From an uncultured Acidobacteriota bacterium (GTDB lineage: Bacteria > Actinomycetota > Acidimicrobiia > Spongiisociales > ZC4RG35): a stretch of 64,000 bases of DNA. Positions 4,119-24,701 of the stretch are shown one piece after another (the first letter of the stretch is position 1; each line of letters opens with the position of its first letter). The DNA lies in NCBI GenBank assembly GCA_963828465.1, contig CAWHEU010000020.1:1-64000 (forward strand), read 5' to 3'. The notes beneath the pieces are model-generated. The model did not search any database, was not told where the DNA came from, and worked only from the letters and a program-made list of their open reading frames with translations. Position numbers and translations under genes: made by a program.

Positions 4119-4150
4119 AAGGCGCCGACGGTCAGATCGGAGACCGAGAC

Positions 4151-6467: not shown

Positions 6468-6529
6468 GCCTGTCGGCTGCGACATCGGCGGCGATTCGGG
6501 CCACGGTCCGTCCCGGTTCGACTGACCCA

Positions 6530-7270
6530 ATGACCACCGAAGCCGTTCTCGTGATCCTGGTGATCTCGGCGGCCTACCTGATCAAAGGGGTGACAGGGAT
6601 CGGCGGGCCACTCCTGGCGGTGCCCTTCATCGCCGGGATCGCCAGTGTGGAACTGGCGGTCGTGGTCCTCTCCCTGGGGAACCTGGTGTCGAACGGCTGG
6701 TTGCTTTGGGAGCACCGCTCCGGGGGCCGCGGCACTGGCTTCGTGATGACACCGTTCCTGGTCGTCGGGGTCCCGGCGACCATCGCTGGGACATGGCTCC
6801 TCACCGAGGTGGACGATCGGATCCTCTCGGTGATCATCGCCGTTGTGATCCTGGGATACATCTGGCGCTACCTGGCCGACCCCCATTTCGTGCTCGAGCG
6901 AGACACCGCTCGCCGAATGGCGGCCCCAATGGGCTTGGTGGGAGGTGGGCTGCTGGGTGCCACCGGGACGGCAGGGCCCCTAATCGCCACCTACATGCAC
7001 GCCATCCGGCTCGGCCGCCCCTCGTTCATCCACATGATGAGCCTGACCTTCCAGGTCTTCGGAGTGATCCAGCTGGTGACCCTGGTCGTCCTCGGCGCCT
7101 TCACCCCGGAGCGAACCGTGCAGGCCTTATGGGCCATCGTCCCCGTGACCGTGATGACAGCCATCGGCATACGCATCGGGCGTCGGCTGAATCAGCGGGT
7201 GCTCGAGTTCCTGGTGCTCGCGCTGTTGGGGTTCGCTGCTGTCCGGCTGCTGCTGTCGGCGCTGGGCTGA
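6530..7270 (+). CDS. TauE/SafE-family (sulfite exporter-like) membrane protein
   Basis: IKGVTGIGGPLLAVP and GLLGATGTAGP repeats; about 8 TM helices. Confidence 0.85.
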   Translation: MTTEAVLVILVISAAYLIKGVTGIGGPLLAVPFIAGIASVELAVVVLSLGNLVSNGWLLWEHRSGGRGTGFVMTPFLVVGVPATIAGTWLLTEVDDRILSVIIAVVILGYIWRYLADPHFVLERDTARRMAAPMGLVGGGLLGATGTAGPLIATYMHAIRLGRPSFIHMMSLTFQVFGVIQLVTLVVLGAFTPERTVQALWAIVPVTVMTAIGIRIGRRLNQRVLEFLVLALLGFAAVRLLLSALG

Positions 7271-8637
7271 GGGGGCCAGTTCTGATGCCGCCGCTCGGTG
7301 TGGAGCAGGCAAGCGGTGAGATGACCGTCACCGACGTCCTCCAGCTCGACCGGTTCCACCGGGAAGAACCTGATGTCCAGGCTTCTGCCATCGGTGGACA
7401 CCGTCTCGAGCGCCGCTTTCATGGCCGGCGGGATGTCACCGTCCTGAATTGCCTGGCCCACCGCTGAAGCCGAATCGTCGTCGTGGAAGACCAGAGTGGC
7501 GTCGAAGTTCGATCTGCGCTGCACATCGGCGAGACCGGCTGCCAGTAACTCACGGGTCTGGAGCCACGCCACTGCGTCGTCGACCTCCCACCCGCAGGCC
7601 GGGGTAGCTACCGGGCACCGGGTGTGGAAGCGGCAGCCTTCCGGCGGGTTGGCCGGATTGGGCACCGCCCCCTTCAGGCCCTTCATCACGGAAACCTCTG
7701 CGCGGATGTCGGGGTTGGCGGCGAGGAGAGCGTCGGTGTACGGGTGACGGGGATCTTCGAAAAGCTCTTTGGCAGTGCCGTATTCGGCGACCTTGCCCAG
7801 GTACATGACGGCGATGCGATCGCTCATCAGCCTGACGACACCGAGGTCGTGACTGATGAACAGATAGGTCAGGCCGCGATCTTTCTGCAACTCGTGGAGC
7901 AGGTTGAGGATCTGGGCCTGCACCGAGACGTCGAGGGCGCTCGTCGGCTCGTCGAGGACGATGAACTCGGGGTCGAGGGCAAGGGCCCGGGCTATCGAGA
8001 TCCGCTGTCTCTGACCTCCGGAGAACTGATGGGGGTACCGGTAGAGGTGCTGGCGACCAAGACCGACGCTCTCCAGCAGCGAGACGACGCGCTCGATGAG
8101 CTCCTGGCCGGATGCCTCTTTGTGGACCTGGAGCGGCCGGCCCACGAGGTCCTTCACGAGCTGTCTCGGGTTGAGCGAGCTGAAGGAGTCCTGGAAGACG
8201 ATCTGGCAGTTGCGCCGATATATCTTCCACGCCTTTCCCGAAAGCCCGTCGACGCGGTGATTCGCGTCGATTCGCTCCACCTGCTTTCGTTGCTCCACGG
8301 TGCGATCGGCCTCGGGGATGGGATCGATCTCATCGAGCCTGGCGGCGTCCTCGTCCGAGAGCCTGAAGTAGATCTTGCCGCCGGTCGGGGCCACGAGGCC
8401 GCCGATACATCGACCGAGCGTCGTCTTGCCACATCCCGACTCACCGACGAGACCCATCGTCTCCCCGGGACGGACCTCGAAGGAGACACCGTCGACGGCC
8501 CGCACATTGCCCACCACCCGTTGCAGGGTGCCTTCCTTGATCGGGAAGTACTTCTCGACCCCTCGCACTGAGATGACCGCCCGTTGGGCCGCCCCCGGCG
8601 GCTGGCTCCCTCGTGATGGGCAGTCAACGGAAGTCAC
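7192..8637 (-). CDS. Oligopeptide/sugar ABC transporter ATPase (OppF/AppF-like)
   Basis: [25 protein letters not shown] and CRFHTRC; probable GTG start at 8637. Confidence 0.92.
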
Positions 8638-9817
8638 GAGACCCACCTCTCCAGCGTGGGTAGGACAACGGAGCCATCGCTCGTGTCGTAGGCGAAGCAG
8701 GCAACCGTGTGCTCCGCGCCCACCATCACGACCTCCGGGTCGGTGGTCCGGCATACCTCGACCGCAAATGGGCATCGGGTGTTGAACCGGCATGCCGGCG
8801 GCGGGTCGACCAGTTCGGGCACCGTCCCCTCGATGGCTGCGAGATGGCCTCTCTCATGGAGGGCGGAAGGGACCGCCGCCATGAGACCTCTGGTGTAGGG
8901 GTGCTTGGGGTCGCTGAACACCTCCTCGGTCGTTCCCGTCTCGACGATCCGCCCGGCGTACATCACGGCCACCCGATCGCAGATCTCCTTGACGAGCGAG
9001 AGGTCGTGGCTGATATAGAGGACCGAAGTCTCCAGACGCTGTTGCAACTCGGCGATCAGCTCGAGGATCCTCGCCTGGATGGTGACGTCCAGGGCTGTCG
9101 TCGGCTCGTCGGCGATCAACAGGTCGGGATTGCAGGCCAAGGCCTGGGCGATGAGGACGCGCTGTTTCATTCCGCCCGAGAGCTCGTGGGGGTAGCTGTC
9201 CATGATCGTGCGCGGATTGGAGATCTGGGTCTCGGTGAGGGCGCGGGCGACGAGCTGATCGACTCGCTCTCTCATCTTTTCTGCCTTGGCCCGCCACGGA
9301 GGGAATCTCAGGAGGAACCGCTCGAAGCTGCTCGTTTGCTGGTGGGCGGCGCGACGGATGAGACGGGGCACGTGGTCGCCGAAAGGCTCGAGGATGTCCT
9401 CGGAACGGTGCTGGTAGAAAACCTCGGCCACCTGGCTGCGTATCGACAACGCCGGGTTGAGCGCCTTGCCCGGGTCCTGGAAGATCATCGCGATCCGATC
9501 GCCGCGGATCTCCAGCATCTCGTCGTGGGGGATCTGGAGGAGGTCGATCGGGTCTCTGCCGCTCTTGCGTGCCTCGGTCGACCAGAAGTCGATCTCACCG
9601 CCGGCATAGATCCCGGGGGGGCTGGGGACGAGACGGATGAATGAGCGAGCGGTCACACTCTTGCCGCAGCCGGTCTCGCCGACCAGCCCGAGGGTCTCTC
9701 CATCTCGGATGTCGAAGGAGACGCCGTCGACTGCGTGCACCACTCCAGCCTTGGCCTGGAAATAGACCTTGAGATCCCGGACCGATGCGACCAGGGGCCG
9801 GGTGGTGGCTCGGTCAT
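8634..9817 (-). CDS. Oligopeptide/sugar ABC transporter ATPase (OppD/AppD-like); probable frameshift near the 5' end
   Basis: [25 protein letters not shown]. The in-frame VRDLKVYF lies upstream of 9743 with no start codon. ATG 9817 (MTEPPPGP) joins it if one base is added to the G run at about 9794-9797. Confidence 0.88.
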
Positions 9818-9965
9818 AATGTGGTGTTGATGTCGACGTGACTCTTGGTCACGACCACCCCCCGTCCGGCCAGTCAGTAGCGCCGATCGAGGTCACGCCG
9901 ACCAGTATGTCATGCGACCACCGGCTAGCTGCCTTCACCTCTTCCTCCCTGTGCCCGCTGTTCGC

Positions 9966-9977
9966 GCAATCGATTGC
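9966..9977. promoter_or_regulatory. Palindrome GCAATCGATTGC, possible LacI-type operator upstream of the ABC ATPases
   Basis: Perfect 12-bp palindrome with central CG in a divergent intergenic region. Confidence 0.45.
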
Positions 9978-10095
9978 TGACCGGCAACGCACGATATAGC
10001 GTGGGCGCGCGAGGCGCAATAGTTCGCCGAAGCGGCCACCGGCACTTTCGCGTCGGACTGACGACAGACGATCCGGGCTCGGCCACAATTGCTCC

Positions 10096-10974
10096 GTGCG
10101 CGTCGCCACCTGGAACGTCAACTCGCTCAAGGCTCGACTGGAGGCCGTTGAGAAGTGGTTGGACCGGGCTGCGCCCGACGTGTTCCTCATGCAGGAGACC
10201 AAGGTGGCCGACGATGACTTCCCACACCTCATTCTCCAGGCGGCCGGATACGAAGTAGCTCATCACGGTGAGGGGCGATGGAACGGAGTGGCAATCGCGT
10301 CACGCGTCGGGATCTCGGAGGTGGTCACCAACTTCGGCGATGGCCCGGTGCGCGACAGCCGGGGCAGGAGCCAGGCCGAGGAGGACTTCGATCCGTTCGA
10401 CGAGGCCCGGATGGTGAGCGCGACATGCGCCGGGATCAGGTTCGTCAGCCTGTATGCGCCGAACGGCCGTCAGGTGGGATCGCCGTTCTTCGAGGGCAAG
10501 CTGCGATGGCTGGCCCGGGTCCATGACTGGCTGGCCGAGGAGCTGACGCCGAATGAGCCGGTGGTGCTCGGTGGCGATCTCAACGTCACTCCGGCCGACG
10601 AGGACGTGTGGGATCCGGAGAAGGCGCACGGCGGCACCCATGTCTCTTCCGAGGAGCGTGAAGCTCTGGCACGTCTTCGTGAGTGGGGCCTGGTCGACGC
10701 CTTTCGGATTTGTCGTCCCGAAGCGGGCCGCTTCTCATGGTGGGACTATCGGGCCGGAATGTTCCAACGCAACCAAGGAATGCGGATCGACCTGCTCTAT
10801 GTCACCCAGCCGGTTGCCGAGAGGGTGGTCTGGGCGGAGATCGACCGGGAAGCTCGCAAGGGAAAGCCCACTCCGTCCGACCATGCCCCGTTGGTCGTAG
10901 ACCTCGATGAGCCGGGGACGCCTTTCGATGCTGGTTGGGAGGGTGCGATGGCGAGGATCGCTACCCGGAAATAG
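10096..10974 (+). CDS. xth: Exodeoxyribonuclease III (AP endonuclease)
   Basis: ATWNVNS, MQETK, YAPNG, GDLNV, FSWWDYR, GMRID and SDHAP motifs. Confidence 0.95.
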   Translation: MRVATWNVNSLKARLEAVEKWLDRAAPDVFLMQETKVADDDFPHLILQAAGYEVAHHGEGRWNGVAIASRVGISEVVTNFGDGPVRDSRGRSQAEEDFDPFDEARMVSATCAGIRFVSLYAPNGRQVGSPFFEGKLRWLARVHDWLAEELTPNEPVVLGGDLNVTPADEDVWDPEKAHGGTHVSSEEREALARLREWGLVDAFRICRPEAGRFSWWDYRAGMFQRNQGMRIDLLYVTQPVAERVVWAEIDREARKGKPTPSDHAPLVVDLDEPGTPFDAGWEGAMARIATRK

Positions 10975-11057
10975 CCGCGAGAAGCGTCGTCTTCATCCTG
11001 CCTTCACAGGGCCTGAATAGTCTCGGATTGCACTGACATCGAGGGAGGGGAACGGTC

Positions 11058-11783
11058 ATGAGAATGGGCGCACAGAAGGCGATGTCCGCACTCGTCCTCA
11101 CGACGTTGCTATTGGCCGGGTGCGGGGGCGGGGCCGGGGACACGGCCACCACCACCGGTCCCGATGCGGGCGGGGCGGCCTCCACCTCGGCCGTCGTCGA
11201 GGAAACGACCACCACGGTGGCACAGACCACAACCACCGCGACAGAGACCACGACTGCCGCCGAACAAGGGGCAGGCATCGAGGACATCCCACCCGACTGC
11301 GTGGCCGAGATCGCAGCGATTCTCCAGGTCTTCGAACCGGCGGTGGAGGGCATCGACTGGGAGAACGCCACCATCGACGATTACATCCAGGTCATGACGT
11401 CCCTCGCCGGGACCTCCATCGGCGACACCACGGCGTGTGAGAACGTGGAGCTGGACATGAGCGAAGAGGAGGGGGCGGCGCTGTTCTTCGAGGTCGCCGA
11501 GCAGGAGGTACCGGGGGCCGTCGGCTACTTCACCGCGATCATCGCCATGAACGAGGCACTCGGGGACAGGCAGTCGACCGGGGAGTGTCAGACTGACATC
11601 GGCATCTTCGAAGAGGTAGTCGCCGGGGGAGTGCCTTTTGTCGACCTTCCCCTCCCCGAGCAATGGCTCGTGCTGAACCTCATGGGCTCGATCGGATTTT
11701 GCAACCTGCAAACCCAGGGGGAGCTCAGGTTCCGGCCCGAGGTGGAGGAGTTCCTGGCCGGTTCGCCTTTCGCCGGAGGCTGA
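11058..11783 (+). CDS. Hypothetical lipoprotein
   Basis: LLAGC lipobox, Thr-rich linker, acidic domain with four Cys. Confidence 0.8.
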   Translation: MRMGAQKAMSALVLTTLLLAGCGGGAGDTATTTGPDAGGAASTSAVVEETTTTVAQTTTTATETTTAAEQGAGIEDIPPDCVAEIAAILQVFEPAVEGIDWENATIDDYIQVMTSLAGTSIGDTTACENVELDMSEEEGAALFFEVAEQEVPGAVGYFTAIIAMNEALGDRQSTGECQTDIGIFEEVVAGGVPFVDLPLPEQWLVLNLMGSIGFCNLQTQGELRFRPEVEEFLAGSPFAGG

Positions 11784-11805
11784 TACCAGGCGTTGCCTAA
11801 AGTCG

Positions 11806-12801
11806 ATGGCCATGACTCCGACTGACAATCGCCAGGCCACCATCGACTGGCTGCTCGACTCCGATCCCTCGATCCGCTGGCAGGTGATGAGGGACCTCAC
11901 CGATGAGCCGGCCGATTTGATCGCTGTCGAACGCTCGAGGGTCGCCACGGAGGGATGGGGAGCCCGACTCCTCGCCCTGCAGGACTCGAACGGGCAGTGG
12001 GGCGGTGGCACCTTCCACCCCGAGTGGACGTCGACCTTCAACACCCTGGCGCTGCTGTGGGACCTGGGACTGGACCCGGCCAGCGAGCAGGCCCGCACTG
12101 CTGTGAGCCTGGTCCGGGAGAAGGTCAGCTGGGACGACTATCCGCAAGTCCCGTGGGCCGACAATCCATTCTTCGACGGCGAGGTAGAGCCCTGCATCAA
12201 CGGCCGGGTAATTGCCGTGGGCTCCTACTTCGGCCAGGACGTCCAAGGTCTGGTCAACAAGCTCCTCGGTGAGCAGCTCTCAGACGGAGGCTGGAACTGC
12301 GAGGCAGAGAACGGCTCTACCCGGTCGTCGTTTCACACCACGATCAACGTCCTGGAGGGCTTTCTCGAGCACGAACGCGCCACCGGCACCACCGAAACGA
12401 CGGAGGCCCGACTCAGGGGTGAGGAGTACCTCCTCGAACGACGCATGTTCCATCGACTCTCCACCGGCGAGGTGGTCGATCCGGCGTGGACCTACTTCTT
12501 CTTCCCGACCCGATGGCATTACGACGTGCTCAGAGGGCTCGACTATCTGCGGAGCGCCGGTGTCGAGCCCGATGAGCGATGTGCCGAGGCGATCGAGCTG
12601 GTCCAGAAGCGACGTGGCGAGGACGGGCGATGGACCATGCACTACTCGTACCCGGGTGAAGTTCATTTCGACATGGAGGACGGGGAGGGACACCCCAGCC
12701 GCTGGATCACGCTTGGTGCGCTGCGCGTCTTCGAGTGGTCGTATGGGCATTCGACGGTGAAATGGCCCGACAACGCTATGACCAGGGGAAACAAGGGTTA
12801 G
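11806..12801 (+). CDS. Prenyltransferase/squalene-cyclase-repeat protein; C-terminus altered by an integrated element
   Basis: WLLDSDPSIRWQVMRDL, QDSNGQW and QLSDGGWNC QW-type repeats, SRWITLGALRV. Confidence 0.85.
   Translation: MAMTPTDNRQATIDWLLDSDPSIRWQVMRDLTDEPADLIAVERSRVATEGWGARLLALQDSNGQWGGGTFHPEWTSTFNTLALLWDLGLDPASEQARTAVSLVREKVSWDDYPQVPWADNPFFDGEVEPCINGRVIAVGSYFGQDVQGLVNKLLGEQLSDGGWNCEAENGSTRSSFHTTINVLEGFLEHERATGTTETTEARLRGEEYLLERRMFHRLSTGEVVDPAWTYFFFPTRWHYDVLRGLDYLRSAGVEPDERCAEAIELVQKRRGEDGRWTMHYSYPGEVHFDMEDGEGHPSRWITLGALRVFEWSYGHSTVKWPDNAMTRGNKG
12748..12764 (+). repeat. Left att core (direct repeat)
   Basis: CATTCGACGGTGAAATG, identical to 16018-16034. Confidence 0.9.
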
Positions 12802-12810
12802 CCGGAACCC

Positions 12811-12830
12811 TGTGACACGCTGGTGACACG
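12811..12830 (+). repeat. Putative integrase arm-type sites, left
   Basis: TGTGACACGCTGGTGACACG, two GTGACAC copies; matches 15882-15901. Confidence 0.7.
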
Positions 12831-13031
12831 GGAGCCGACCCTCCAGCGGGGTGGCTCGCAGACCAAACCAGCCGCCACCAGTTGCGCTATTGGACCGGTA
12901 CTGCGTGGTCTGAGCACGTGTCGGACATGGGTGCCACCGACGTGGACCCCGTCTAGGCGGCCACGACCCCAGGGATCGTCCACACCCCAAATCGGTTTAG
13001 CCGTCGAGATAGCCGGGTAAGGGACTCGTAA

Positions 13032-13069
13032 GGAAAGGCCAACGGACCTTCGGGTTTGTTGGTCTTTCC
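13032..13069 (+). terminator. 17-bp hairpin with C(UUCG)G loop; terminator or ncRNA domain
   Basis: GGAAAGGCCAACGGACC-TTCG-GGTTTGTTGGTCTTTCC, fully paired with three G-U pairs, followed by a pyrimidine run. Confidence 0.65.
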
Positions 13070-13191
13070 CCTTTCTCGGGCTCGCAACGATGAAAGCCCG
13101 ATTCGTACTGGGCCTCTTCGGGAAAGCGATAGTGGGACGATGGGGGCCCAAGCCGACCCAATAGCCTTCCGGCGGTCCCCTAATCCCGGTA

Positions 13192-13225
13192 GGAAACCTC
13201 CCGGCGCCCGCACCGGGGGGTTTCC
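13192..13225 (+). terminator. 13-bp hairpin; terminator or ncRNA domain
   Basis: GGAAACCTCCCGG-CGCCCGCA-CCGGGGGGTTTCC. Confidence 0.6.
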
Positions 13226-13249
13226 GTTCATCCTCCTACCCTGCAACGG

Positions 13250-13537
13250 GTGGCCAGTGCTCTCACCTCCCGGGGTAGCACCACCCGATGGCGGAGAATC
13301 AGGAACGCTGTCCTCATCCGAGACAGCCACCGCTGCCAGACCTGCGGACAGCCGACAACCTGTGTCGACCACATCACCCCCCGGTCCCAAGGCGGAGGGG
13401 ATGTATGGCGGAACCTGGCCGCATCGTGCCGGCGCTGCAATGCGAAGAAGGGGACACGGCCCGGCATCGTGCTCAACACCCGGACTGGTCTAACTCTCGA
13501 TGAGCCCGGACCGCTCGGACGCAGCGTCACCCGCTGA
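13250..13537 (+). CDS. Small HNH endonuclease (phage gp74/McrA-like)
   Basis: RWRRIRNAVLIRDSHRCQTCG...VDHITPRSQGGGDVWRNLAASCRRCNAKKG, i.e. CxxC-H-N-CxxCN. Confidence 0.92.
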   Translation: MASALTSRGSTTRWRRIRNAVLIRDSHRCQTCGQPTTCVDHITPRSQGGGDVWRNLAASCRRCNAKKGTRPGIVLNTRTGLTLDEPGPLGRSVTR

Positions 13538-13546
13538 ACCAGATGA

Positions 13547-14062
13547 CTAGCCGACTGTCAGCGTTCCCTTCATGCCGTATGAGGCGTGGTTAAGAATCGA
13601 GCACCATATGACGTACTCACCTGGCTCAAGTCCACGCACCGTGTAGGAGGCCGAAGTTCCCGGCTGAACCGTGTCGCTCCTCGCAATCGTGTAGCCTTGC
13701 TTCAGCCCGATAGCCAGAGTATGAGACGCGAGTGGGTTTTCTGGATCTCCGGTGTTGACCAGGAAGAAGACAGTGTCACCGGGAGGCGCAGTCAATTCAT
13801 TTGGCCGGAAGTGAGGCGGTGGCCCCGAAAGCTCGACCTGCACCGATCCTGGTGGAGCGTCGCTGGCCACCTCCGTGATGGTGTCGAGCAACGTGGTCGT
13901 CGTGTTGGCTAGTACGGAAGTGGTAGGGCTGACCGTGGTGGCTACCGCAGCTTGCGTAGTCGTAGGCAGGGCCGTGGTGGTACTACCTCCTCCATCACCC
14001 CCTCCGCACGAAATCACCACGAGCAACATGATCGAGGTGGTGACGCGCCCGCTCCGTAACAA
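13547..14062 (-). CDS. Cupredoxin-domain lipoprotein
   Basis: VVISC lipobox, Thr-rich linker, His (SHTL) and C-terminal WCSILNHASYGMKG type-1 copper ligands; TTG start at 14062 after GGAGGA. Confidence 0.85.
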   Translation of the reverse strand: MLRSGRVTTSIMLLVVISCGGGDGGGSTTTALPTTTQAAVATTVSPTTSVLANTTTTLLDTITEVASDAPPGSVQVELSGPPPHFRPNELTAPPGDTVFFLVNTGDPENPLASHTLAIGLKQGYTIARSDTVQPGTSASYTVRGLEPGEYVIWCSILNHASYGMKGTLTVG

Positions 14063-14082
14063 GATTCCTCCCTTCAGGTGTC

Positions 14083-14241
14083 CTACCAACCCCCGACGTT
14101 GGGTGGTGGAGGATCATGGTCGTAGGGGCGTCCATGCTTCTTGGTCGGCTTCGTAAAAACGACAGCCGCGACCGCGGCGACGAGGAGCAGGAGCAACCAC
14201 CAATCCAGGATCCAGGCCCAGACGCTTTGCAGGAAGTCGAT
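14083..14241 (-). CDS. Possible small single-TM protein; start unclear
   Basis: Manual translation IDFLQSVWAWILDWWLLLLLVAAVAAVVFTKPTKKHGRPYDHDPPPPNVGGW*; no canonical start codon after the upstream in-frame TAG. Confidence 0.4.
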   Translation of the reverse strand: MDFLQSVWAWILDWWLLLLLVAAVAAVVFTKPTKKHGRPYDHDPPPPNVGGW

Positions 14242-14455
14242 GGTCGAACCCTACATGTCGAGTCTTTCGCTTCGCTGAGGGCGTATGCAGCCGAGGCCAG
14301 AGACGGGCCATTTTTTCTACACGACGCCAGCCGCGGACAGGCCCAAGTGCTTATCTCTCCCCCCACATTTCTTTTCCCGGGGGTTTGGCGGGCATCGGTA
14401 GACGGTGGCGTTTGCTGGCGCCTTGAGGCTTTTCCTGGCGTGAAGTTGGGTGCGC

Positions 14456-14665
14456 TTATCCCAAACGGGGAAAATCGGCCTCGTCGTCCTCGAAAACCCT
14501 TATCTGACGGGTGTAAAACTCTTCGATGGCGTGGATGGGGATGACTCGTCGGGCGCCGATCTTGAACGATCCGAGCTGACGACTGGCGACGAGACGTTGC
14601 ACGGTTCGCCGGCTCACTCGGAGGGCGTTGGCGGCTTCGTCGTAGTTGGCCACGAGCGGTTCCAT
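14456..14665 (-). CDS. Excisionase-like HTH (HTH_17) protein
   Basis: YDEAANALRVSRRTVQRLVASRQLGSFKIGARRVIP. Confidence 0.88.
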   Translation of the reverse strand: MEPLVANYDEAANALRVSRRTVQRLVASRQLGSFKIGARRVIPIHAIEEFYTRQIRVFEDDEADFPRLG

Positions 14666-14703
14666 CGGTCCCGAACTCTACGTCAGTGCTCGCGATCCAG
14701 TCG

Positions 14704-14895
14704 TCATGCCATGTTCCCGCTGATCATGGACACCATGAACACCGAGGCGAATACCGTCGAAACAACGGCGAGTGCCCAGAAGCGCTTATATCTCCGCGCT
14801 TCCTCGTCTTTGATCAAGTAGATCCAGGCGCCGACGGCAAAGATCGGGGAGAACAAGAAGAACCCGATCAGGTAAAGCATCCAACGAATAGGCAT
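14704..14895 (-). CDS. Small two-TM membrane protein
   Basis: Two hydrophobic segments separated by KDEEARRYKR. Confidence 0.6.
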   Translation of the reverse strand: MPIRWMLYLIGFFLFSPIFAVGAWIYLIKDEEARRYKRFWALAVVSTVFASVFMVSMISGNMA

Positions 14896-15269
14896 GGTGG
14901 GGTTACCGCTTCTTTTTCTCTGGGATCTGTGATTTCGTCTACCAGCGCTTCCGCGCGCCTTCAGAGCGCGCGCCTGTTAAAGCGGAGCCGGGCAGGGCTG
15001 GTACGAGCGGCATGCGCTCGACAAGGATTGATCGGCTGATCTCAATCGAACTTAATGCCAAGGCACGCGGCACTATTTGGCGCCGCGTCCCGTGGTGGAT
15101 TGTCCCGACCCGGCTCCGGTCGTCGAACTATGTTTGAGGGTTCCTGCGCAAGGGGCTCGTTCATCGTCTTTCGAGTGCCACGTAGGAGCGGGGAACCCCG
15201 AGCTGTCGAGTCACTTCAAGATCCAGGCCGGTCGGGCTTCTCCCGCGCTGGTCAGCCAAACTGTGCTCA

Positions 15270-15911
15270 GTGGCGATGTACTGCGACTTCTGCGGCACCC
15301 GACTCTCCGAGCATCCGATGACGGCCTGTCGTGTGCTACTGACCACCACGTTCTCTCCAAAGGTGTTGATGCCACGGGATGCCCGGAAGCTCCGGGAGGT
15401 AGCCCTGTGGACCGCGGGCTGGCCGATGGCAAGGATTGCCGCCGAAGTGGGGATCTCCACACGGCAAGTGCATCGGGATCTGGCTTCGAGGCGGAGATCT
15501 ATCCCGGCGCCGGCCAAAGTGGTCACCAGTAACGGTCACCGCTTCCCGGCCAAGATGCCTTCTAGGGAGGCCCGCGCTATTCGTCGGGCCCGGGCGGTCC
15601 GTCTCGTCGTCGGGGAAGGTTGGAGTGTCATCGAGGCCGCCCGGAGGATGGGCTGGCCGGCGACCACCATCCGCGAGGACCTCCAAGCGGTGGGTATCGA
15701 ACGGGTCGGGATGGTGACCACTCGGGATGGTCGGCAAATGCCTGCTCGACGCCCTACCGCGGAGCAACTCGGAGGACGCCGCGCCCGCGCCCGCGCCCTC
15801 CGCACTCAGGGTTGGACGTTCGCCAAGATCGCCGTCGAACTGGGTGTCAGCTACACGACCGCGGAGCGAGATGCTTCATTCCGTGACACAGCTGTGACAC
15901 AGGAGGGGTAG
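15270..15911 (+). CDS. Triple tandem HTH DNA-binding protein with N-terminal Cys/His motif
   Basis: Three repeats: GWPMARIAAEVGISTRQVHRDL, GWSVIEAARRMGWPATTIREDL, GWTFAKIAVELGVSYTTAERDA. N-terminal CDFCG...H....C. Confidence 0.8.
   Translation: MAMYCDFCGTRLSEHPMTACRVLLTTTFSPKVLMPRDARKLREVALWTAGWPMARIAAEVGISTRQVHRDLASRRRSIPAPAKVVTSNGHRFPAKMPSREARAIRRARAVRLVVGEGWSVIEAARRMGWPATTIREDLQAVGIERVGMVTTRDGRQMPARRPTAEQLGGRRARARALRTQGWTFAKIAVELGVSYTTAERDASFRDTAVTQEG
15882..15901 (+). repeat. Putative integrase arm-type sites, right
   Basis: CGTGACACAGCTGTGACACA, two GTGACAC copies in the same orientation as the left arm. Confidence 0.7.
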
Positions 15912-16017
15912 AAACGGGCGCATATTGGCGCGTACTGCTAAGTACGGTCGATTACCCGAAATCCCTGGTCAGACGCCCTTTTTCAGCGTTTCACCTGGTC
16001 AGCGATTTGCAGCCTGA

Positions 16018-16034
16018 CATTCGACGGTGAAATG
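16018..16034 (+). repeat. Right att core (direct repeat)
   Basis: CATTCGACGGTGAAATG followed by A, which restores the TGA stop of the target gene. Confidence 0.9.
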
Positions 16035-16190
16035 ACCACAATTCGGACGATGGAGCCGATCTCACTGACCGTCGACGACAGGACACCTGGAGTCAGGGGC
16101 ATTGTGGTCGGACGGGCTCTCCCCTACCCCCAGAACGACGACGTCGCCGCGGCTGTCGACCTCGCCGCCGGTATCGTCGCCAGGGACTGA
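16032..16190 (+). pseudogene. Short ORF resembling the C-terminus of a Cgl0159-like aldolase
   Basis: Manual translation ...PGVRGIVVGRALPYPQNDDVAAAVDLAAGIVARD*; resemblance recalled from the family, not searched. Confidence 0.5.
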
Positions 16191-16230
16191 ATCGAGTACG
16201 GCAATCGGGGCCGCTCCGCCCGATGAATCT

Positions 16231-16704
16231 CTAGTTGTTGTCGTGAGCGACAAGGAAGGCTTGCTGCTCCTCCTCCGACATCGCCTCCAAGCCGTTGAGG
16301 CCTTCGAAGTACTTCTCTCGCGGGCCCCCAGGAGCGAAGTGGATGAGCATCGAAGCCGGCGCCCCTGACTCGTTGCTGAAGCCGTGGATCCCGCCAGGCG
16401 GGACGTGGAGGAAATCGCCGACTGCGCCGTCGACCCATTCCTTGCCGTCGTACACGCGCACCGTGCCAGTGAGAATGTAGAAAGACTCTGCCATGGTGCG
16501 GTGGAAGTGAGGACTCGCTCCTCCCCGGCCCGGTCCCATCGACCACCGATAGAGCCCGAATAGACCGCCTGTGGTCTCGCCGGTGGCCAGGTAGTGCACC
16601 TCGGTCCCGCTGGACCGAACCAGATCTGGCTCGGCGCCCGCCCTCGAGATCGTGGCTGTGATCTCACCCTCCGATCCGTGATAGAGCGGGTCTGGATAAG
16701 TCAT
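16231..16704 (-). CDS. Cupin domain protein
   Basis: PHFHRTMAESFYILTG and VPPGGIHGFSN. Confidence 0.9.
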   Translation of the reverse strand: MTYPDPLYHGSEGEITATISRAGAEPDLVRSSGTEVHYLATGETTGGLFGLYRWSMGPGRGGASPHFHRTMAESFYILTGTVRVYDGKEWVDGAVGDFLHVPPGGIHGFSNESGAPASMLIHFAPGGPREKYFEGLNGLEAMSEEEQQAFLVAHDNN

Positions 16705-16746
16705 GGCCTTTCGCTACGTTACGCGGCACGCGAACAAGGAGAACGG

Positions 16747-17793
16747 ATGACCGCGGAGCCGGGTCCGGTGGCATCTCCAACCTTGGCCGATCAGGTCAGC
16801 AAGCTCTATGAGTTGATCGCCGGGTACCACGCCACCCACATGATCGAAATCGGGCACCAACTCGGGGCATGGGCAGCCCTCACCGAGGAGCCGGGTCTGA
16901 CCTCCGCCGGGCTCGCAGGCCGCCTTGGCACCGATGGCTTTTACACAGATGTCCTGTGTCGCACCGCCTTTGCCTTCGAGATTCTCGACCGGGACGGGGA
17001 GGGTTGGCGAATGGGGCAGCATTTCGAACAGATCCTCGGAGATCCAGAATCGAGCTTCTATCTGGCCGGGGCGGCCGGGGCTCACATGGAGGTGGGTAAG
17101 GACTACCCGGACTACTTGGATCATTTCCGGGAAGGCACGGTTCGTCCCTACCAGGAGCACGATGAGGCATTCATGCGTGAGGTCGCCGAGGCGCTCAAGG
17201 CACTGCCACGCATCTTCCTCGATCTGGTGCTGCCCCAACTCCCGGTTTTGCAGCAGCGTCTCGAGGAGGGGGGACGGGTGCTGGACGTGGGCTGCGGCGC
17301 TGGGTGGGCGCTCGTCCAGATTGCAGAGCGGTTTCCCGAGGTCGCATGTCTGGGGATCGATGTCGAGCCCTTCTCCGTCGCTCTTGCTCAAGAGCTGATC
17401 GAGGAGCGAGGTTTGTCCGACCGTTGCGAATCGCGTGTGCTCAGCGTCGACCAGCTAGACGAAGCAGGAAGCTTCGATGTCGCAACCAGCTTCCTGGTTG
17501 TTCACGAGATAGCGCCGGCGCTGAAACCAGGAGCCTTCGCCGCGGTCGCCCGGGCCCTGAGGCCGGGCGGCTCCTTCCTGATTTTCGATGAGGTGTACCC
17601 GGTCAGTGACGAGGCCCTGCGAGCCATGCCAACCCGCTTTGCGGCGTTGGCCCAGTGGTACGAGCTCACCTGGGGCAACGTGGTCGACACCCGCGCCGGT
17701 CTCGAGGAGCTCTGCAATCAGGCCGGGCTCACTGTCACCGAAGAGACGAGCTTCTCCCGGTTCCACATAGTGGTCGCAGAGAAGCCCGCCTAG
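16747..17793 (+). CDS. SAM-dependent methyltransferase with N-terminal wHTH-like domain
   Basis: VLDVGCGAGW, FDVATSFLVVHE, ALRPGG. Confidence 0.9.
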   Translation: MTAEPGPVASPTLADQVSKLYELIAGYHATHMIEIGHQLGAWAALTEEPGLTSAGLAGRLGTDGFYTDVLCRTAFAFEILDRDGEGWRMGQHFEQILGDPESSFYLAGAAGAHMEVGKDYPDYLDHFREGTVRPYQEHDEAFMREVAEALKALPRIFLDLVLPQLPVLQQRLEEGGRVLDVGCGAGWALVQIAERFPEVACLGIDVEPFSVALAQELIEERGLSDRCESRVLSVDQLDEAGSFDVATSFLVVHEIAPALKPGAFAAVARALRPGGSFLIFDEVYPVSDEALRAMPTRFAALAQWYELTWGNVVDTRAGLEELCNQAGLTVTEETSFSRFHIVVAEKPA

Positions 17794-17814
17794 TCGCTGG
17801 CCCGGTGCCGCCGA

Positions 17815-18132
17815 TCACATGATGTCGAGCGCCTCGGCGACCTCGATGGTCCCGCCCGAAGGCAGCTGCGGCGAGCCCTTGGCGAAGACGAGGGCCTGCT
17901 CGAGGCTGTCTGCGCTGATGATCGAGTAGCCGGTCACCGGGTTGGCGCCGCCGCCCTGGGTGGTCGACCCATCGGTCCCGACGGTGGCCGATGCCCCGGT
18001 CGGGTGCCCTTGATCAACTACTGCCGAGCCAAGACCGCCCAACCATTCATTCCACGCCTGCATCACCGCCGCCCCCTCCTCCTCCGACTCCGGGGTGCTG
18101 CCGCCGTGATAGACGAACAAGAACTTGGCCAT
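17815..18132 (-). CDS. YCII-related protein
   Basis: KFLFVYHGG...NPVTGYSIISADSLEQA...GGTIEV. Confidence 0.8.
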   Translation of the reverse strand: MAKFLFVYHGGSTPESEEEGAAVMQAWNEWLGGLGSAVVDQGHPTGASATVGTDGSTTQGGGANPVTGYSIISADSLEQALVFAKGSPQLPSGGTIEVAEALDIM

Positions 18133-18261
18133 TGCGTCTCCTTTCGCACGGCCACCTGGTGTGGCCTGTACATCTAGAGACGAACGGGGCTCACGCCTTT
18201 CGACATCTGGTGTCCAGGCTTTCGTCGTAGTGGGCGGGCGTTAACTACCGTCCCGTCGCTG

Positions 18262-18879
18262 ATGAAATTCAGGATCGTCCCCACCAGCCGGGAATTCTTC
18301 GACGATTTCTCTTTGGCAGCGCACAACATCGCGACGTGTGTGGACAAGCTCAACGATGTCCTCGCCGACACAGCACATGCGGCAGAGCTCCATGTGGCGG
18401 TCAAGGAGGTCGAGCGGGCCGGTGACGAGTACACCTCGCGCATTCTGACCCGGCTCGACTCCACATTCGTCACCCCGTTCGACCCTGAGGACATTCAGCG
18501 GTTGGCGCAGGGAATCGATGATGTGGTCGACGACATCTACCACGTGTCCGAGATGGTGGTGCTCACCAACATCACTGAGCTGATCCCCGAGGTTCCCGAG
18601 CAGGTAGAAGTCCTGACGAAAATGGCCGCGAAGATCGTCGAGCTCTTCGATCGCTTCGAGGACATGAGGGGCCTCCGCCAGATCATCGGCGAGATCGAAG
18701 GTCTGGAGAGCGAGGGAAATCGAATCTACCGAAGAGCCGTCGCCAGGCTGTTCTCCGGGGAGATGGAACCAGTCGACGTCATCCGTTGGAAGGACATCGT
18801 CGAGTCGCTGGAAGCGGTGCTCGACCGTATCGAGGACATGACCAACATCGTCACCACGATCGTCGTCAAGCAGGCCTGA
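18262..18879 (+). CDS. DUF47 phosphate transport regulator (PhoU-like)
   Basis: ERAGD...TFVTPFDPEDI...DDVVD...LESEGN; adjacent to PiT. Confidence 0.93.
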   Translation: MKFRIVPTSREFFDDFSLAAHNIATCVDKLNDVLADTAHAAELHVAVKEVERAGDEYTSRILTRLDSTFVTPFDPEDIQRLAQGIDDVVDDIYHVSEMVVLTNITELIPEVPEQVEVLTKMAAKIVELFDRFEDMRGLRQIIGEIEGLESEGNRIYRRAVARLFSGEMEPVDVIRWKDIVESLEAVLDRIEDMTNIVTTIVVKQA

Positions 18880-18892
18880 GGAAGCATCGATC

Positions 18893-19885
18893 GTGGAGAT
18901 CGGCGCGATCATCGTGATTCTGGTCGCGCTGGCCTTTGACTTCACCAACGGATTCCACGACGCGGCCAACTCGATCGCCACGGTGGTGTCGACCAGAGTG
19001 CTCTCACCCCAATATGCGGTGATCTGGGCCGCGTTCTTCAACTTCGTCGCATTTCTCATCTTCAGCACACACGTGGCCAACACCATCGCAAAAGACGTGG
19101 TGGTACAGAGCGCCCTCACCGTTGGGGTGATCTTCGCCGGCCTCCTCGGTGCAATCGCCTGGAATCTGTTGACCTTTTGGCTTGGCCTCCCCACCAGCTC
19201 GTCGCACGCTCTCGTCGGTGGCATGGCAGGTGCGGCGGTCGTGCGTGGCGGGTTCGATGTCCTCATCTCCGAGGGCCTGGCGACCATCGGCGCCTTCATA
19301 GTGCTCTCTCCGTTGATCGGGCTCGCTCTCGGGCTCTTGTTGACCGTGATCATCCAGTGGCTGTTTCACCGCGAAAAGGACATCGACAGATTGAACAAGG
19401 GGTTCCGACGAGGCCAGCTGGCGTCGGCGGCCGCCTTCAGCCTGGGACACGGTGGCAATGACGCCCAGAAGACGATGGGGATCATCCTGGCTGTCCTCAT
19501 CGCGGTCGGGAGCCTTCCTCCCGATGCCGAGGTGCCTCTCTGGGTCGTCCTCTCCGCACACACGGCAATCGCTTTGGGCACGCTTTTCGGTGGATGGCGG
19601 ATCGTCAAGACGATGGGGTTCAAACTCACCAAGCTGCAGCCCTCCGGTGGTGTTGCCGCCGAGACCGCCGCGGCCGCCACACTCTTCTTCGCCTCGGCAC
19701 AGGGCATTCCGGTCTCGACGACGCACACCATCACCGGGGGGATCGTCGGAGTAGGCGCCGCCCGTCGTATGTCGGCGGTGCGTTGGCGGGTGGCCGGCAG
19801 GGTTCTGTGGGCGTGGATCTTCACGATCCCGGGCGCAGCCATCGTTGCCGGCATATTCTCACTGATAGTGGAAGCGCTGGCATGA
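18893..19885 (+). CDS. pit: PiT-family inorganic phosphate transporter
   Basis: NGFHDAANSIAT, GLPTSSSHAL, HGGNDAQKTMG, PVSTTH. Confidence 0.96.
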   Translation: MEIGAIIVILVALAFDFTNGFHDAANSIATVVSTRVLSPQYAVIWAAFFNFVAFLIFSTHVANTIAKDVVVQSALTVGVIFAGLLGAIAWNLLTFWLGLPTSSSHALVGGMAGAAVVRGGFDVLISEGLATIGAFIVLSPLIGLALGLLLTVIIQWLFHREKDIDRLNKGFRRGQLASAAAFSLGHGGNDAQKTMGIILAVLIAVGSLPPDAEVPLWVVLSAHTAIALGTLFGGWRIVKTMGFKLTKLQPSGGVAAETAAAATLFFASAQGIPVSTTHTITGGIVGVGAARRMSAVRWRVAGRVLWAWIFTIPGAAIVAGIFSLIVEALA

Positions 19886-20076
19886 GCGACCGGAGGGCCT
19901 ATTTCTTCCTGGCAGCGGCCCTGGCGGTCCTCGCGGTTCAGGGTCTCGTTCCCCAGTACCGCTGGTTGACCCTCTCCGTAGCGGCCGTCTACTTGGTCTT
20001 CGCTCTGGCTTTTGCGACCGCCAACCTCTCGGCCCGGCGAGCGTCGATCAAGAGGCGTGAATCTCGGGACGGCTGA
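19882..20076 (+). CDS. Small two-TM membrane protein
   Basis: MSDRRAYFFLAAAL...; ATGA overlap with pit. Confidence 0.65.
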   Translation: MSDRRAYFFLAAALAVLAVQGLVPQYRWLTLSVAAVYLVFALAFATANLSARRASIKRRESRDG

Positions 20077-20077
20077 A

Positions 20078-20527
20078 TCAGTCTGTTTGGCGCTTCCGGT
20101 CGATGCCCTCGATGTCAGAACGCTTACCGCTCTCTCTCAGAACACCAACGCCGAGGCCGATCAGGGCGACCGCGAGGAGGACTGCTCCGCTGCGGGTGAG
20201 CAGGGTCCCGGCCGAGGACATCCCTTCCGCACCGACGAGCATGTGTACAAAGAAGCCTCCCGATTGAAGGAGGATCCCGCTCAGCAGGGTCAGTCCGAGC
20301 AACCGTTGGCGCGAGGCGTTGAAGTCTGTCCTATCCATGAGTACGAAATAGATCAGTGCCAGAGTGAGGAGCACGCCGGCATGGGCGTGCCCGGCCCGGA
20401 AGAACTGCTCCTCGAAATCGGTGATGGCTCCCTGGCTGGTCAGCATGCCCAGCAACGACCAGCCGCCGAATTCGACCGTGACAATGGCAAAGAGTGTGAA
20501 GGCGATCATTCGCGACGTGGGTCTCAT
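20078..20527 (-). CDS. Conserved 4-TM membrane protein
   Basis: FFRAGHAHAGVLL motif; ATG at 20527 overlaps the upstream stop. Confidence 0.8.
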   Translation of the reverse strand: MRPTSRMIAFTLFAIVTVEFGGWSLLGMLTSQGAITDFEEQFFRAGHAHAGVLLTLALIYFVLMDRTDFNASRQRLLGLTLLSGILLQSGGFFVHMLVGAEGMSSAGTLLTRSGAVLLAVALIGLGVGVLRESGKRSDIEGIDRKRQTD

Positions 20528-21249
20528 CGGGTTCCCTTCTTCGTTGATGGTCCGCCGGAGCGACGGATGAGCGATGTGCCGAGTGCGAGGAGCCAAATAG
20601 TGATGACCGTCGGCCCGATGATCGTGAGAATCCTCGAGGCCGCGGTTGGCTCTCCGGCGAAGGCCTGAACCAGGCCCGCTCCGATCGACAACACTCCGGC
20701 TGCCACCGCCACCCAGCCAAACCAGGTCGGGTAGTCGTCACCTAACGCCACAGCCAACCCGAACAGGAGGAACGTGGCGCCGGCGAACACCATGTTGAAA
20801 AGACTGGCGAGCGAGAAGTTGAGGGTCTCGTTGGCTCCGACGATGCGTAAGGCGGTCGCCTGCTGATCGGGGGGCGCCAGCACCCACTCCTCGGCGAGCT
20901 GTCGTGCTCCCACCCCGTCCATGATCACCAGCACCAGGCCGATGGTCACGCCGACCACGGCGGCAAGCATCCCGAACTCCGCCAACACCCTCGGAAGCGT
21001 TCCCGTGATCGAGTGGAACAGGGCGTACATCCCCAAGAGCATCAAGAAAATCCCCAGGACGATGATCAGATGGAGCGAGACCCATGAGCCCGACCGGGCG
21101 ATCACCTCGGCGGTCCCAAATGGATCGCCGATCGGGGTTTGAGGATGAAGGAGGTTCCCCACCATCCCCAGGAGTGATCCGACGACGGCGGCCCATCCTC
21201 CGATCTTGAGCACCCATTGCTGATGTGTCGTGGGAGTGAGGGTCTGCAT
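20524..21249 (-). CDS. DUF4386-like membrane protein
   Basis: Six hydrophobic helices; NLLHP and YPTWFGW motifs. Confidence 0.75.
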   Translation of the reverse strand: MQTLTPTTHQQWVLKIGGWAAVVGSLLGMVGNLLHPQTPIGDPFGTAEVIARSGSWVSLHLIIVLGIFLMLLGMYALFHSITGTLPRVLAEFGMLAAVVGVTIGLVLVIMDGVGARQLAEEWVLAPPDQQATALRIVGANETLNFSLASLFNMVFAGATFLLFGLAVALGDDYPTWFGWVAVAAGVLSIGAGLVQAFAGEPTAASRILTIIGPTVITIWLLALGTSLIRRSGGPSTKKGTR

Positions 21250-21278
21250 GGTTGCACTCTGTCTTCAGGTATCTTCAC

Positions 21279-21300
21279 ATATCACAATGACATGTGATAT
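21279..21300. promoter_or_regulatory. Inverted repeat, probable PadR operator
   Basis: ATATCACA-ATGACA-TGTGATAT in the AT-rich divergent intergenic region. Confidence 0.6.
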
Positions 21301-21359
21301 AGGAATAACATTACGACCTGCCACTGTGATGTGTCAACCGAGCAGAAAGGCGAAATGAG

Positions 21360-21881
21360 ATGTCTCGATCCTTGAATGCCACCGCCGCGTCCTTGCTCGG
21401 ATTCCTGCACGAAGGGCCGATGACCGGATGGGACGTCGTTGCTGTAGCCCAACAACGCATCGGTGACTTCTGGTCGCTGACCCAGAGCCAGGTCTACCGG
21501 GAGTTGGCGACCATGGCCGAGCAGGGCCTCGTCGAGGCGGGGGTGCGCGGCAGCAGGGACAAGCGTCCATACGCGATCACGCCGGCCGGGCGGTCCGCAT
21601 TCCGGCACTGGGTGGAACAGATGCCGGGGGACGAGACGATCAGATTCCCCCTCTTACTCACCCTGGCGTTCGGCCGCCATCTCCCGGCGGACCGACTGGC
21701 GACCATGCTCGAACAGCATCGTCTCATCCACTCGGAGCGATTACGTGCCTATGGCCTGCAACTGAAGGAGGTGGAGGCGATAGGGGATCCCTTTGCAAGC
21801 GCCACGCTCGACTTTGGCATCACGTATGAGAAAGCCGTGCTCGAGTGGTTCGACCGACTACCCAAGGACCTCTCCGAGTAA
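21360..21881 (+). CDS. PadR-family regulator
   Basis: LLGFLHEGPMTGWD...SQVYREL...KRPYAITPAGR. Confidence 0.93.
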   Translation: MSRSLNATAASLLGFLHEGPMTGWDVVAVAQQRIGDFWSLTQSQVYRELATMAEQGLVEAGVRGSRDKRPYAITPAGRSAFRHWVEQMPGDETIRFPLLLTLAFGRHLPADRLATMLEQHRLIHSERLRAYGLQLKEVEAIGDPFASATLDFGITYEKAVLEWFDRLPKDLSE

Positions 21882-21894
21882 CGAGAGCCCGGGT

Positions 21895-22605: not shown

Positions 22606-22621
22606 CGACCTCCAATCTAAT

Positions 22622-22700: not shown

Positions 22701-22716
22701 AGGAGAAAAGGAGGAC

Positions 22717-24691: not shown

Positions 24692-24701
24692 CGACGGGTG
24701 A

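Follow-up and report, generated by a model that had tools for sequence, protein, structure and literature searches.

How does a segment of DNA that carries no integrase come to lie across the stop codon of a gene, between two exact copies of one short sequence, and by what means could it leave again? This question is posed by a 3.3-kb element in a stretch of 64,000 nucleotides (hereafter, the window), namely, positions 1 to 64,000 of contig CAWHEU010000020.1 from assembly GCA_963828465.1, deposited as an uncultured Acidobacteriota bacterium and placed by GTDB in the class Acidimicrobiia of the Actinomycetota. An earlier reading made from the letters alone (the sequence-only reading) described a site-specific element bounded by a 17-bp core and leaned towards a satellite mobilised in trans. 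We read the element as a non-autonomous integrative element with the attachment-site (att) architecture of tyrosine integrases, similar to the cis-mobilizable elements (CIMEs); it is non-autonomous because it encodes no recombinase. As to its origin, we lean towards a mosaic derivative of CIME type that descends from a small element with an integrase and has lost that integrase.

Insertion at an overlapping stop and start codon

The ends of the element carry the following features (HTH, helix-turn-helix):

12748-12764, + strand: attL core CATTCGACGGTGAAATG, left copy of an exact 17-nt direct repeat
16018-16034, + strand: attR core CATTCGACGGTGAAATG, right copy, where the AAA TGA stop is restored and overlapped by ATG
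12779-12792, + strand: left arm of an inverted repeat, TGACCAGGGGAAAC, 14 nt inside attL
15988-16001, + strand: right arm of the inverted repeat, GTTTCACCTGGTCA, 16 nt before attR
12812-12829, + strand: left tandem GTGACAC-N4-GTGACAC, 11-nt period, 47 nt inside attL, a candidate arm-type protein-binding site
15883-15900, + strand: right tandem GTGACAC-N4-GTGACAC, placed 117 nt inside attR and overlapped by the final triple-HTH codons

The two cores are, as the sequence-only reading had it, identical over 17 bp; they enclose 3,253 bp and, extended by 3 nt, agree at 19 of 20 positions. Two or more matches to the core pattern occurred in none of 100 shuffled versions of the window, and no third copy was found in the window or in the genome. 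The reading frames are likewise those described earlier: the left copy reads HSTVKW, in a frame that runs on for 12 codons, and the right copy reads GTG AAA TGA (VK stop). By itself, such a repeat proves little because exact, isolated direct-repeat pairs of 17-21 nt, 0.5-10 kb apart, are found on many contigs of this genome (k-mer listing of 631 rows, a count inflated by overlapping k-mers of multi-copy repeats). Its weight comes from the relatives, in which the empty site is bounded exactly by the core.

At three loci, the left flank, a single core and the right flank are contiguous: on contig C25 of the same assembly (G000), on contig C205 of G021 and on contig C137 of G017. The upstream gene there ends in HSTVK* (HSTEK* in G017), the empty-site allele that had been predicted before any relative was compared, and these sites, bounded exactly by the core, support site-specific insertion across the stop codon. 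They read AAG TGA, with the TGA overlapping the GTG start of deoC. G317, G320, G012 and G319 each contain a single attB-type copy as well, with 1-2 mismatches; no congener has the exact core, and none has two core copies a few kb apart. Core position 15 is A in both window copies (12762 and 16032; AAATG) and G in the attB-type copies of seven other loci (AAGTG), and with this G, deoC begins with GTG in place of ATG. The orthologous loci of G006, G020 and G019 have a different gene end and lack both the core and deoC. The six closest loci inspected thus comprise three with an uninterrupted site, three in which the site is absent and none with the insert. The sequence-only reading had named syntenic core genes as what the intervening genes might instead be; the triple-HTH gene is found in 0 of the 30 congeners compared (a set that takes in the unpublished G018, G216 and G318), and a search of 300 genomes of the order (including the unpublished G269) returned only 10 weak HTH matches (E from 2e-4 to 1e-3). 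Because the closest loci and the 30 congeners lack the insert or the triple-HTH gene, the insert is, judged by sequence comparison, accessory DNA placed precisely at the core.

Inside both ends, the tandem GTGACAC motifs noticed earlier are in place (12812 and 12823; 15883 and 15894) and, in the GTGACAC-N4-GTGACAC arrangement, are restricted to the two ends of the element across the 3.07-Mb assembly. A second motif, TGACCAGG, occurs at 12779 and, inverted, at 15964 and 15994, all as listed before, with a fourth copy at 13756, within the cupredoxin gene. The two arms of the 14-nt inverted repeat, which lie just inside the cores, are 93% complementary. The GTGACAC tandems, symmetric about the core, are candidate arm-type sites.

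The alternative that nothing site-specific took place, and that the 17-nt repeat reflects chance or micro-homology at an ordinary insertion or at a strain-specific indel made by homologous or illegitimate recombination, has to be weighed in this apparently rearrangement-prone region. Such repeats are common in the genome, a chromosomal deletion junction lies 45 nt past the right core, and the assembly mixes two versions of the region (86-90% identical), with a chimeric join possible at 16079-16085. Against the three empty sites, however, the insert is bounded exactly by the repeat; it carries an excisionase-family gene and symmetric sub-terminal motifs that are unique in the genome; a relative of the same design (locus L044, see below) is located at a tRNA 3' end; and a contig from a soil run bridges attL (12444-12810). 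We regard this explanation as improbable.

The host assembly totals 3.07 Mb in 29 contigs (completeness 92%, contamination 4.8%). Positions 3-12767 of the window match contig C25 at 86-90% identity, a second version of the neighbourhood from which the C25 empty site derives, and positions 16085-27049 match contig C1 at 85%. Altogether, second copies of window 3-42765 are spread over contigs C25, C1, C27 and C9 at 84-91% identity, with C1 and C27 overlapping each other; the bin probably is a mixture of two related populations or else contains large genomic duplications.

A single study of soil metagenomes contributes four runs in which parts of the stretch occur, though only as Logan contigs 150-570 nt long with a depth of 2-5. 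One of these contigs spans attL; a junction of the excised chromosome or of a circle is not listed among them, a low-depth result that neither shows nor excludes excision. In run X1, one low-depth contig follows the element to 12838, continues with about 50 unrelated letters and resumes the match at 13405 with a 41-nt side; it may represent a variant of the element without the hairpin module and the 5' half of the HNH gene.

An excisionase-family gene but no recombinase

The open reading frames (ORFs) were searched against the Pfam, PHROGs and NCBIfam profiles. Between the ends lie the following genes and noncoding segments, three of which (the hairpin module and two further segments) are common to an integrase-bearing element of a congener (G004, locus L095):

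12965-13255, + strand: hairpin-rich noncoding module, conserved, upstream of the HNH gene
13250-13537, + strand: HNH endonuclease gene, 95 aa (PF01844, 48.4 bits)
13547-14089, - strand: cupredoxin (plastocyanin/azurin-type) with a lipoprotein-like N-terminus, cargo (PF00127, 32.4 bits, cut-off 21.2)
14141-14223, unstranded: noncoding/short-ORF segment common to the G004 element (84.5% identity over 84 nt, L095:8923-9006)
14456-14665, - strand: excisionase-family HTH_17 protein of the recombination directionality factor (RDF) type, 69 aa (PF12728, 42 bits; phrog_66, excisionase)
14704-14895, - strand: hydrophobic ORF, 63 aa, no family above threshold
15123-15214, unstranded: second noncoding segment common to the G004 element, upstream of the triple-HTH gene (L095:9056-9143; 73% identity over 92 nt)
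15270-15911, + strand: triple-HTH protein, 213 aa, three HTH_23-type modules (PF13384 in 3 stretches)

The excisionase (xis) assigned by the sequence-only reading is matched by the TIGR01764 'excise' profile with 36.2 bits, over the cut-off of 28.8, and membership in this family makes the gene product a putative RDF. The same reading found no integrase, Rep or capsid gene, and the profile searches agree: among the 19 ORFs of the element that were scanned, none matched a recombinase, replication, transfer or capsid family, nor were mobilisation or packaging genes found (Pfam, PHROGs). In the absence of a recombinase of its own, the element can leave or move only with an integrase supplied in trans. 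The suggestion that such an integrase might be flanked by the same GTGACAC arms elsewhere in the genome was not borne out, with neither a helper integrase nor a second GTGACAC-flanked locus in the assembly. A six-frame search of the whole assembly yielded just two PF00589 genes, with best scores to XerD and XerC, and no serine recombinase (PF00239). In the genus at large, at least three PF00589 matches were obtained in 23 of the 30 congeners (the count includes the three unpublished genomes), so that phage-type integrases do circulate there.

With XerC- and XerD-like genes as the sole PF00589 matches of the genome, the element might be compared to an integrative mobile element exploiting Xer (IMEX) that would use the host XerC/XerD at a non-dif site, with the excisionase-family and triple-HTH proteins as accessory factors. 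By eye, the core is partially palindromic (CATTcgAC-G-GTgaAATG), and the integrase of the G004 element is itself short and Xer-like. Known IMEX elements integrate at dif; the site considered here, in contrast, is a gene junction with no recognisable dif, and both the arm-type repeat layout and the pairing of the xis family with integrase genes point to a heterobivalent integrase. We find such use of the host enzymes highly unlikely.

Relatives of the element and of its parts

The nearest homologues of the excisionase in the 300 genomes of the order are four genes with 39-42% identity, and 4/4 are located 0.5-0.7 kb upstream of a PF00589 gene on the same strand (3/3 without the unpublished G269). 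The PF00589 gene is read as 374 aa in the three loci examined, whose open frames are given as 411-438 aa in the search output. Three of these xis-int pairs belong to elements at a tRNA by asd in related genera (G150, G204 and G294) that resemble the window element in having an excisionase of the same family and the same gene order, with xis on the minus strand and, to its other side, a gene transcribed divergently. Unlike the window element, they have the 374-aa integrase directly downstream of xis, and the divergent gene encodes a SEC-C-motif protein instead of a triple-HTH protein.

The triple-HTH protein has a very small family. Two homologues were found among 5.8 billion clustered proteins, and a search of 1.84 billion representatives gave only three clusters at E<=1e-30; P0001 (81%), P0002 (69%) and P0006 are among the homologues. 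Searches of GenBank phages, of IMG/VR and, using two peptide patterns, of GTDB species genomes brought up no relatives, and no fused or longer forms were found. The 22 stretches retrieved with the back-translated pattern GHRFPA[KR]MP were all chance matches. A distant homologue, P0007 (288 aa), has a WhiB domain at the N-terminus, ahead of the HTH modules, and in the stretch corresponding to this domain the window protein has three cysteines.

The only triple-HTH relative with visible context is L044, a metagenome locus (L045 is the same locus in another sample) with a 2.1-kb element after tRNA-Leu(tag), in which the triple-HTH gene is 74% identical at the DNA level. The ends of this element are formed by a 53-nt repeat of the 3' part of tRNA-Leu, and the second copy carries compensatory changes in the variable arm; because the two copies are non-identical, the repeat is not a target-site duplication. 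Between them lie a frameshifted triple-HTH gene, an ORF with a weak HTH_17 match (E=0.006) in the xis position and one further, unassigned ORF, but no integrase. A tandem of the 8-nt motif CAACCATT lies on the inner side of each att copy, at 43 nt from attL and 105 nt from attR, compared to 47 and 117 nt for the tandem in the window, so the sub-terminal repeats have the same layout and a different motif sequence.

Two further relatives share noncoding sequence with the element. On contig C22 of the host assembly, an islet of 1.96 kb (L026 8983-11013) between tRNA-Met and a repeat of about 46 nt of the tRNA-Met 3' part includes the hairpin-plus-HNH module at 78% identity, with the HNH gene frameshifted, and no recombinase. 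When three family integrases were compared by tblastn with this islet and with the L044 element, in search of integrase remnants, only noise resulted, and a 58-aa ORF by the tRNA-Met (L026:9074-9250, - strand), considered as a possible integrase C-terminus, is unsupported by BLASTP and Pfam. The G004 element, 3.1 kb at a tRNA-Met (L095:8039-11104, within 7998-11182 of locus L095 on G004:C2), is bounded by the tRNA itself and by 41 nt that repeat its 5' part exactly; its Xer-like integrase of about 300 aa (PF00589, 95 bits) adjoins the tRNA, and a small secreted-protein ORF is also encoded. It resembles the window element in size, in its repeat boundaries and in three noncoding segments, namely, the hairpin module (76% identity) and the two segments listed above (84.5% and 73%), which are adjacent in G004 and, in the window, are split by the block of xis and the 63-aa ORF. 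By contrast, it encodes neither xis nor the triple-HTH protein, its hairpin module is inverted, and its tRNA-derived boundary repeat lies at a different att site.

Derivative or dedicated hitch-hiker

In the scenario that we lean towards, a tyrosine integrase would have recombined an attP with the chromosomal attB, giving attL and attR. This attP would have held the 17-nt core, with the 14-nt inverted repeat and tandem GTGACAC motifs on both arms, and attB would be the same 17 nt, at the overlap between the upstream gene's stop codon and the deoC start. The stretch between attL and xis, which by gene order would be the int position of the related xis-int loci, would have come to be occupied by the hairpin-plus-HNH unit and the cupredoxin gene. 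Integration by a tyrosine integrase is suggested by the core shared with attB, the symmetric sub-terminal repeats, the RDF-type gene and the relative at a tRNA 3' end with non-identical att copies. A target-site duplication of 17 nt would also be unusually long for a transposase. The att architecture proposed by the sequence-only reading accordingly stands for the core and, by family membership, for the RDF; the arm sites are candidates with a layout shared with L044, and the integrase gene of such systems is absent.

The same reading preferred an active satellite, and this preference is not established: the relatives in L044 and on C22 are decaying, the nearest xis homologues reside in xis-int pairs, the G004 relative carries an integrase, and no helper was found in the assembly. 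A mosaic integrase-less derivative appears more likely than a purpose-built satellite because other loci pair this xis family with int, the presumed int position is filled by unrelated modules, relatives are decaying and one relative has an integrase.

Several observations weigh against this preference. The element's five ORFs are all intact, and neither its core nor its tandem motifs contain a mismatch, which fits continuing selection for mobility. Simple decay would be expected to leave integrase fragments. Tblastn with the three family integrases revealed none in the element (all E>0.2), nor was a phage-type integrase or fragment found in the host genome at E<=0.001, despite about 13 other att-bounded islets. 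The window element and the L044 element both lack an integrase while occupying different att sites and having different arm motifs; that each had independently lost one from the same position would be coincidental. The G004 integrase is no obvious partner for arm-type repeats, being short and Xer-like and having no arm-binding domain that could be seen by eye in its translation. The GTGACAC and inverted-repeat motifs, finally, are only candidate protein-binding sites.

These observations bear on the competing view that the element belongs to a dedicated family of integrase-parasitic satellites, consisting of att sites, arm repeats, an RDF and the triple-HTH protein, that is moved in trans by a non-resident helper phage or conjugative element. 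Besides the intact ORFs and the perfect att and arm repeats, it is favoured by the lack of an integrase in 2/2 family members with context, at different att sites and with the same sub-terminal layout, by the contrast between the further islets of the host and its XerC/D-like recombinases, the only ones it has, and by the circulation of phage-type integrases in the genus. However, no helper is identified, the GTGACAC tandem occurs nowhere else in the assembly, and the exact core is in no congener; packaging, replication and mobilisation genes are lacking; the L044 copy is decaying; and the family is tiny (three clusters), with no member in IMG/VR or among GenBank phages. Such a satellite is a possibility to be taken seriously but falls well short of being likely, and the loss of an integrase from a small mosaic element, the reading that we retain, is on balance the more probable course of events.

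Accessory genes and the hairpin module

The triple-HTH protein is presumed to be a regulator or a DNA-binding accessory factor. Its AF2 model shows three 3-helix modules (pLDDT 62, pTM 0.30); Foldseek returned no PDB matches at E<=0.001, and no ESM Atlas entry scored 0.8 or more. The hydrophobic 63-aa ORF probably encodes a membrane peptide. The lipobox of the cupredoxin was read by eye from the sequence. The best NCBIfam match of the HNH protein is the HNH domain of IscB (51.6 bits, far under the cut-off of 175), and PADLOC reported generic HNH and HTH matches only.

The hairpin module folds with a predicted energy of -135 kcal/mol (z = -4.07; 0 of 200 shuffled sequences as stable) and includes among its hairpins a perfect one of 17 bp and a terminal one of 13 bp, the latter seen in three aligned rows of the module. 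Copies of about 110-290 nt are dispersed in the genus (L026, on C22, 9641-9920; C26:106678-106790; L095, in G004, 8450-8573), with 76-78% identity in the C22 tRNA-Met islet and partial copies in C26, G004, G006 and G019. A search of positions 10000-19000 against Rfam at E<=1 found no match in the element, the module included, and ARAGORN found no tRNA in the window. For all three copies in the host assembly, the distance to an att or tRNA end is 0.2-0.6 kb. No tRNA was found in the 3.1-5.5 kb examined around the three copies in G004, G006 and G019; in the wider G004 locus, however, the copy does fall inside the tRNA-Met-bounded element. The module may encode an RNA, form a terminator block or represent a miniature repeat.

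Host genes at the junction

Two ORFs adjoin the ends of the element:

11806-12801, + strand: host gene, 331-aa ORF ending in HSTVKWPDNAMTRGNKG, with weak squalene-cyclase-repeat similarity
16032-16190, + strand: chimeric 52-aa ORF, fusing the first 16 codons of deoC with the end (~33 codons) of a Cgl0159-like aldolase gene

The upstream gene is conserved and natively encodes 319 aa, to which the insertion appends 12 codons (WPDNAMTRGNKG); its orthologues are 79-85% identical and end in HSTVK* or differ at the C-terminus. Its designation as prenyltransferase-like is weakly supported, by matches far below the cut-offs (SQHop_cyclase_N, E=0.071; osq_cycl, E=0.0095). At the empty site, the gene after the stop is deoC, encoding a DeoC/LacD-family aldolase, with its start overlapping the core; the insertion thus adds 12 residues to the upstream protein and uncouples deoC from the upstream gene. 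On C25 (G000:C25:22163-23104; L025 9164-10105, - strand), the empty-site deoC homologue matches the DeoC profile only over positions 6-120 of 229, and the run of this ORF into unrelated sequence probably reflects a frameshift or an assembly error. Among the congeners, three arrangements of the deoC locus are seen: with deoC, without deoC and with other genes.

The sequence-only reading passed over both deoC and the shortness of the native right flank, of which the window keeps only 62 nt (16018-16079) with homology to the empty-site loci. The match to C25 ends at 16079 and that to C1 begins at 16085, which places a putative chromosomal deletion junction at about 16079-16085, 45 nt past the right core. 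Because of this switch, the 52-aa ORF is interpreted as a deoC'::'Cgl0159 chimera; it matches positions 222-251 of 251 of the PF22649 profile, and the full-length Cgl0159-like gene on C1 scores 426 bits, with the deoC counterpart on C25. Beyond 16085, the end of the Cgl0159-like gene is followed by cupin and methyltransferase genes, as on C1. The missing interval, from deoC codon 16 to the end of the Cgl0159-like gene, would amount to at least 23 kb (C25) plus 20 kb (C1), if these contigs are linked.

Further att-bounded islets in the host genome

Elsewhere in the host genome, 12 partial copies of tRNA 3' ends are arrayed downstream of four tRNA genes:

C25:106033-115500, tRNA-Arg(cct): 5 partial copies, spacings 3452, 1636, 1231, 2283 and 766 bp
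C26:90440-107192, tRNA-Arg(ccg): 4 partial copies, spacings 6713, 2451, 6066 and 1422 bp
C22:421226-429980, tRNA-Asn: 2 partial copies, spacings 2053 and 6605 bp
C18:98450-102420, tRNA-Val(gac): 1 partial copy, spacing 3868 bp

Counting the tRNA-Met islet, this makes about 13 islets of 0.8-6.7 kb. Just outside several of the tRNA-Arg copies, the sequence is conserved between the C25 and C26 arrays. Among the 59 array ORFs scanned (out of 196 of at least 75 aa, selected by a GC3 of at least 0.70), none matched a recombinase, and all Pfam matches were of the cargo type, for example, beta-lactamase-fold hydrolases, MFS transporters, an ECF sigma factor, a PAS histidine kinase and a CAAX protease. 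The number of islets, their conserved right ends, the cargo-like ORFs and the lack of a phage-type integrase in the genome together suggest a broader reading, in which the element is one of a population of cassette-like, integrase-less mini-islands that parasitise tyrosine integrases via attP (core and arm-type repeats), much as CALINs and MITEs (see below) do with integron integrases and transposases, and are inserted and removed by the integrases of transient helpers. This reading is attractive but rather doubtful; under it, a sub-family of such mini-islands may retain an RDF and a WhiB-related triple-HTH regulator beside attP.

Comparison with known systems

CIMEs, as defined for ICESt1/ICESt3-related Streptococcus islands (Guedon et al. 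2017, PMC5704250), are flanked by attL and attR and lack integration or transfer genes of their own. The window element is similar in having both att sites and neither a recombinase nor transfer or mobilisation genes (Pfam, PHROGs, NCBIfam), and the tandem att arrays of the host genome recall accretion. It differs in retaining an excisionase-family gene and a regulator, in its high-GC host, and in that neither a tandem partner, such as an integrative and conjugative element (ICE) or integrative and mobilizable element (IME), nor any conjugation context is visible at the locus. An origin by decay from an ICE or IME may apply: the integrase-bearing G004 relative with its three shared noncoding segments and the xis-int pairing of the xis homologues speak for it, and the lack of an integrase remnant, together with the lack of int in L044, speaks against it.

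Comparison with the heterobivalent systems of lambda, L5 and pSAM2 brings out a core common to attL, attR and attB (with AAG for AAA in attB), candidate arm-type motifs on both arms tens to about 120 nt from the core, an RDF-type gene, and a target at a gene 3' end (a tRNA 3' end for L044), whereas the window element has no integrase gene. The int, rep and FtsK-like tra genes of the pSAM2-like actinomycete ICEs (AICEs) are likewise absent from it (Pfam, PHROGs, NCBIfam). Known phage-satellite families encode their own integrase together with replication or packaging-hijack genes. The window element is similar to such satellites (phage-inducible chromosomal islands, PICIs; P4-like satellites; phage-inducible chromosomal minimalist islands, or PICMIs), and to attC-site clusters that have no integron integrase (CALINs) and miniature inverted-repeat transposable elements (MITEs), in its small size and dependence on a helper enzyme, but unlike the satellites, it has no integrase, replication or packaging-interference genes. 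CALINs and MITEs are treated, in a discussion of 'hitchers', as lacking the recombinase on which they depend (Ares-Arroyo et al. 2024, PMC11389934).

If the element is a remnant, it represents an ordinary but very clean case of a small island that integrated at a translationally coupled stop/start overlap, altered the C-terminus of the upstream protein and then lost its integrase. If mobilisation in trans were true, the element would typify a minimal class of hitch-hikers of tyrosine-integrase systems, made up of att sites, an RDF and a regulator, and would help explain how integrase-free genomic islets, which are common in environmental genomes, enter and leave. With attB, the reconstructed attP, the candidate binding motifs and the integrase candidates of the congeners all defined, the case is testable.

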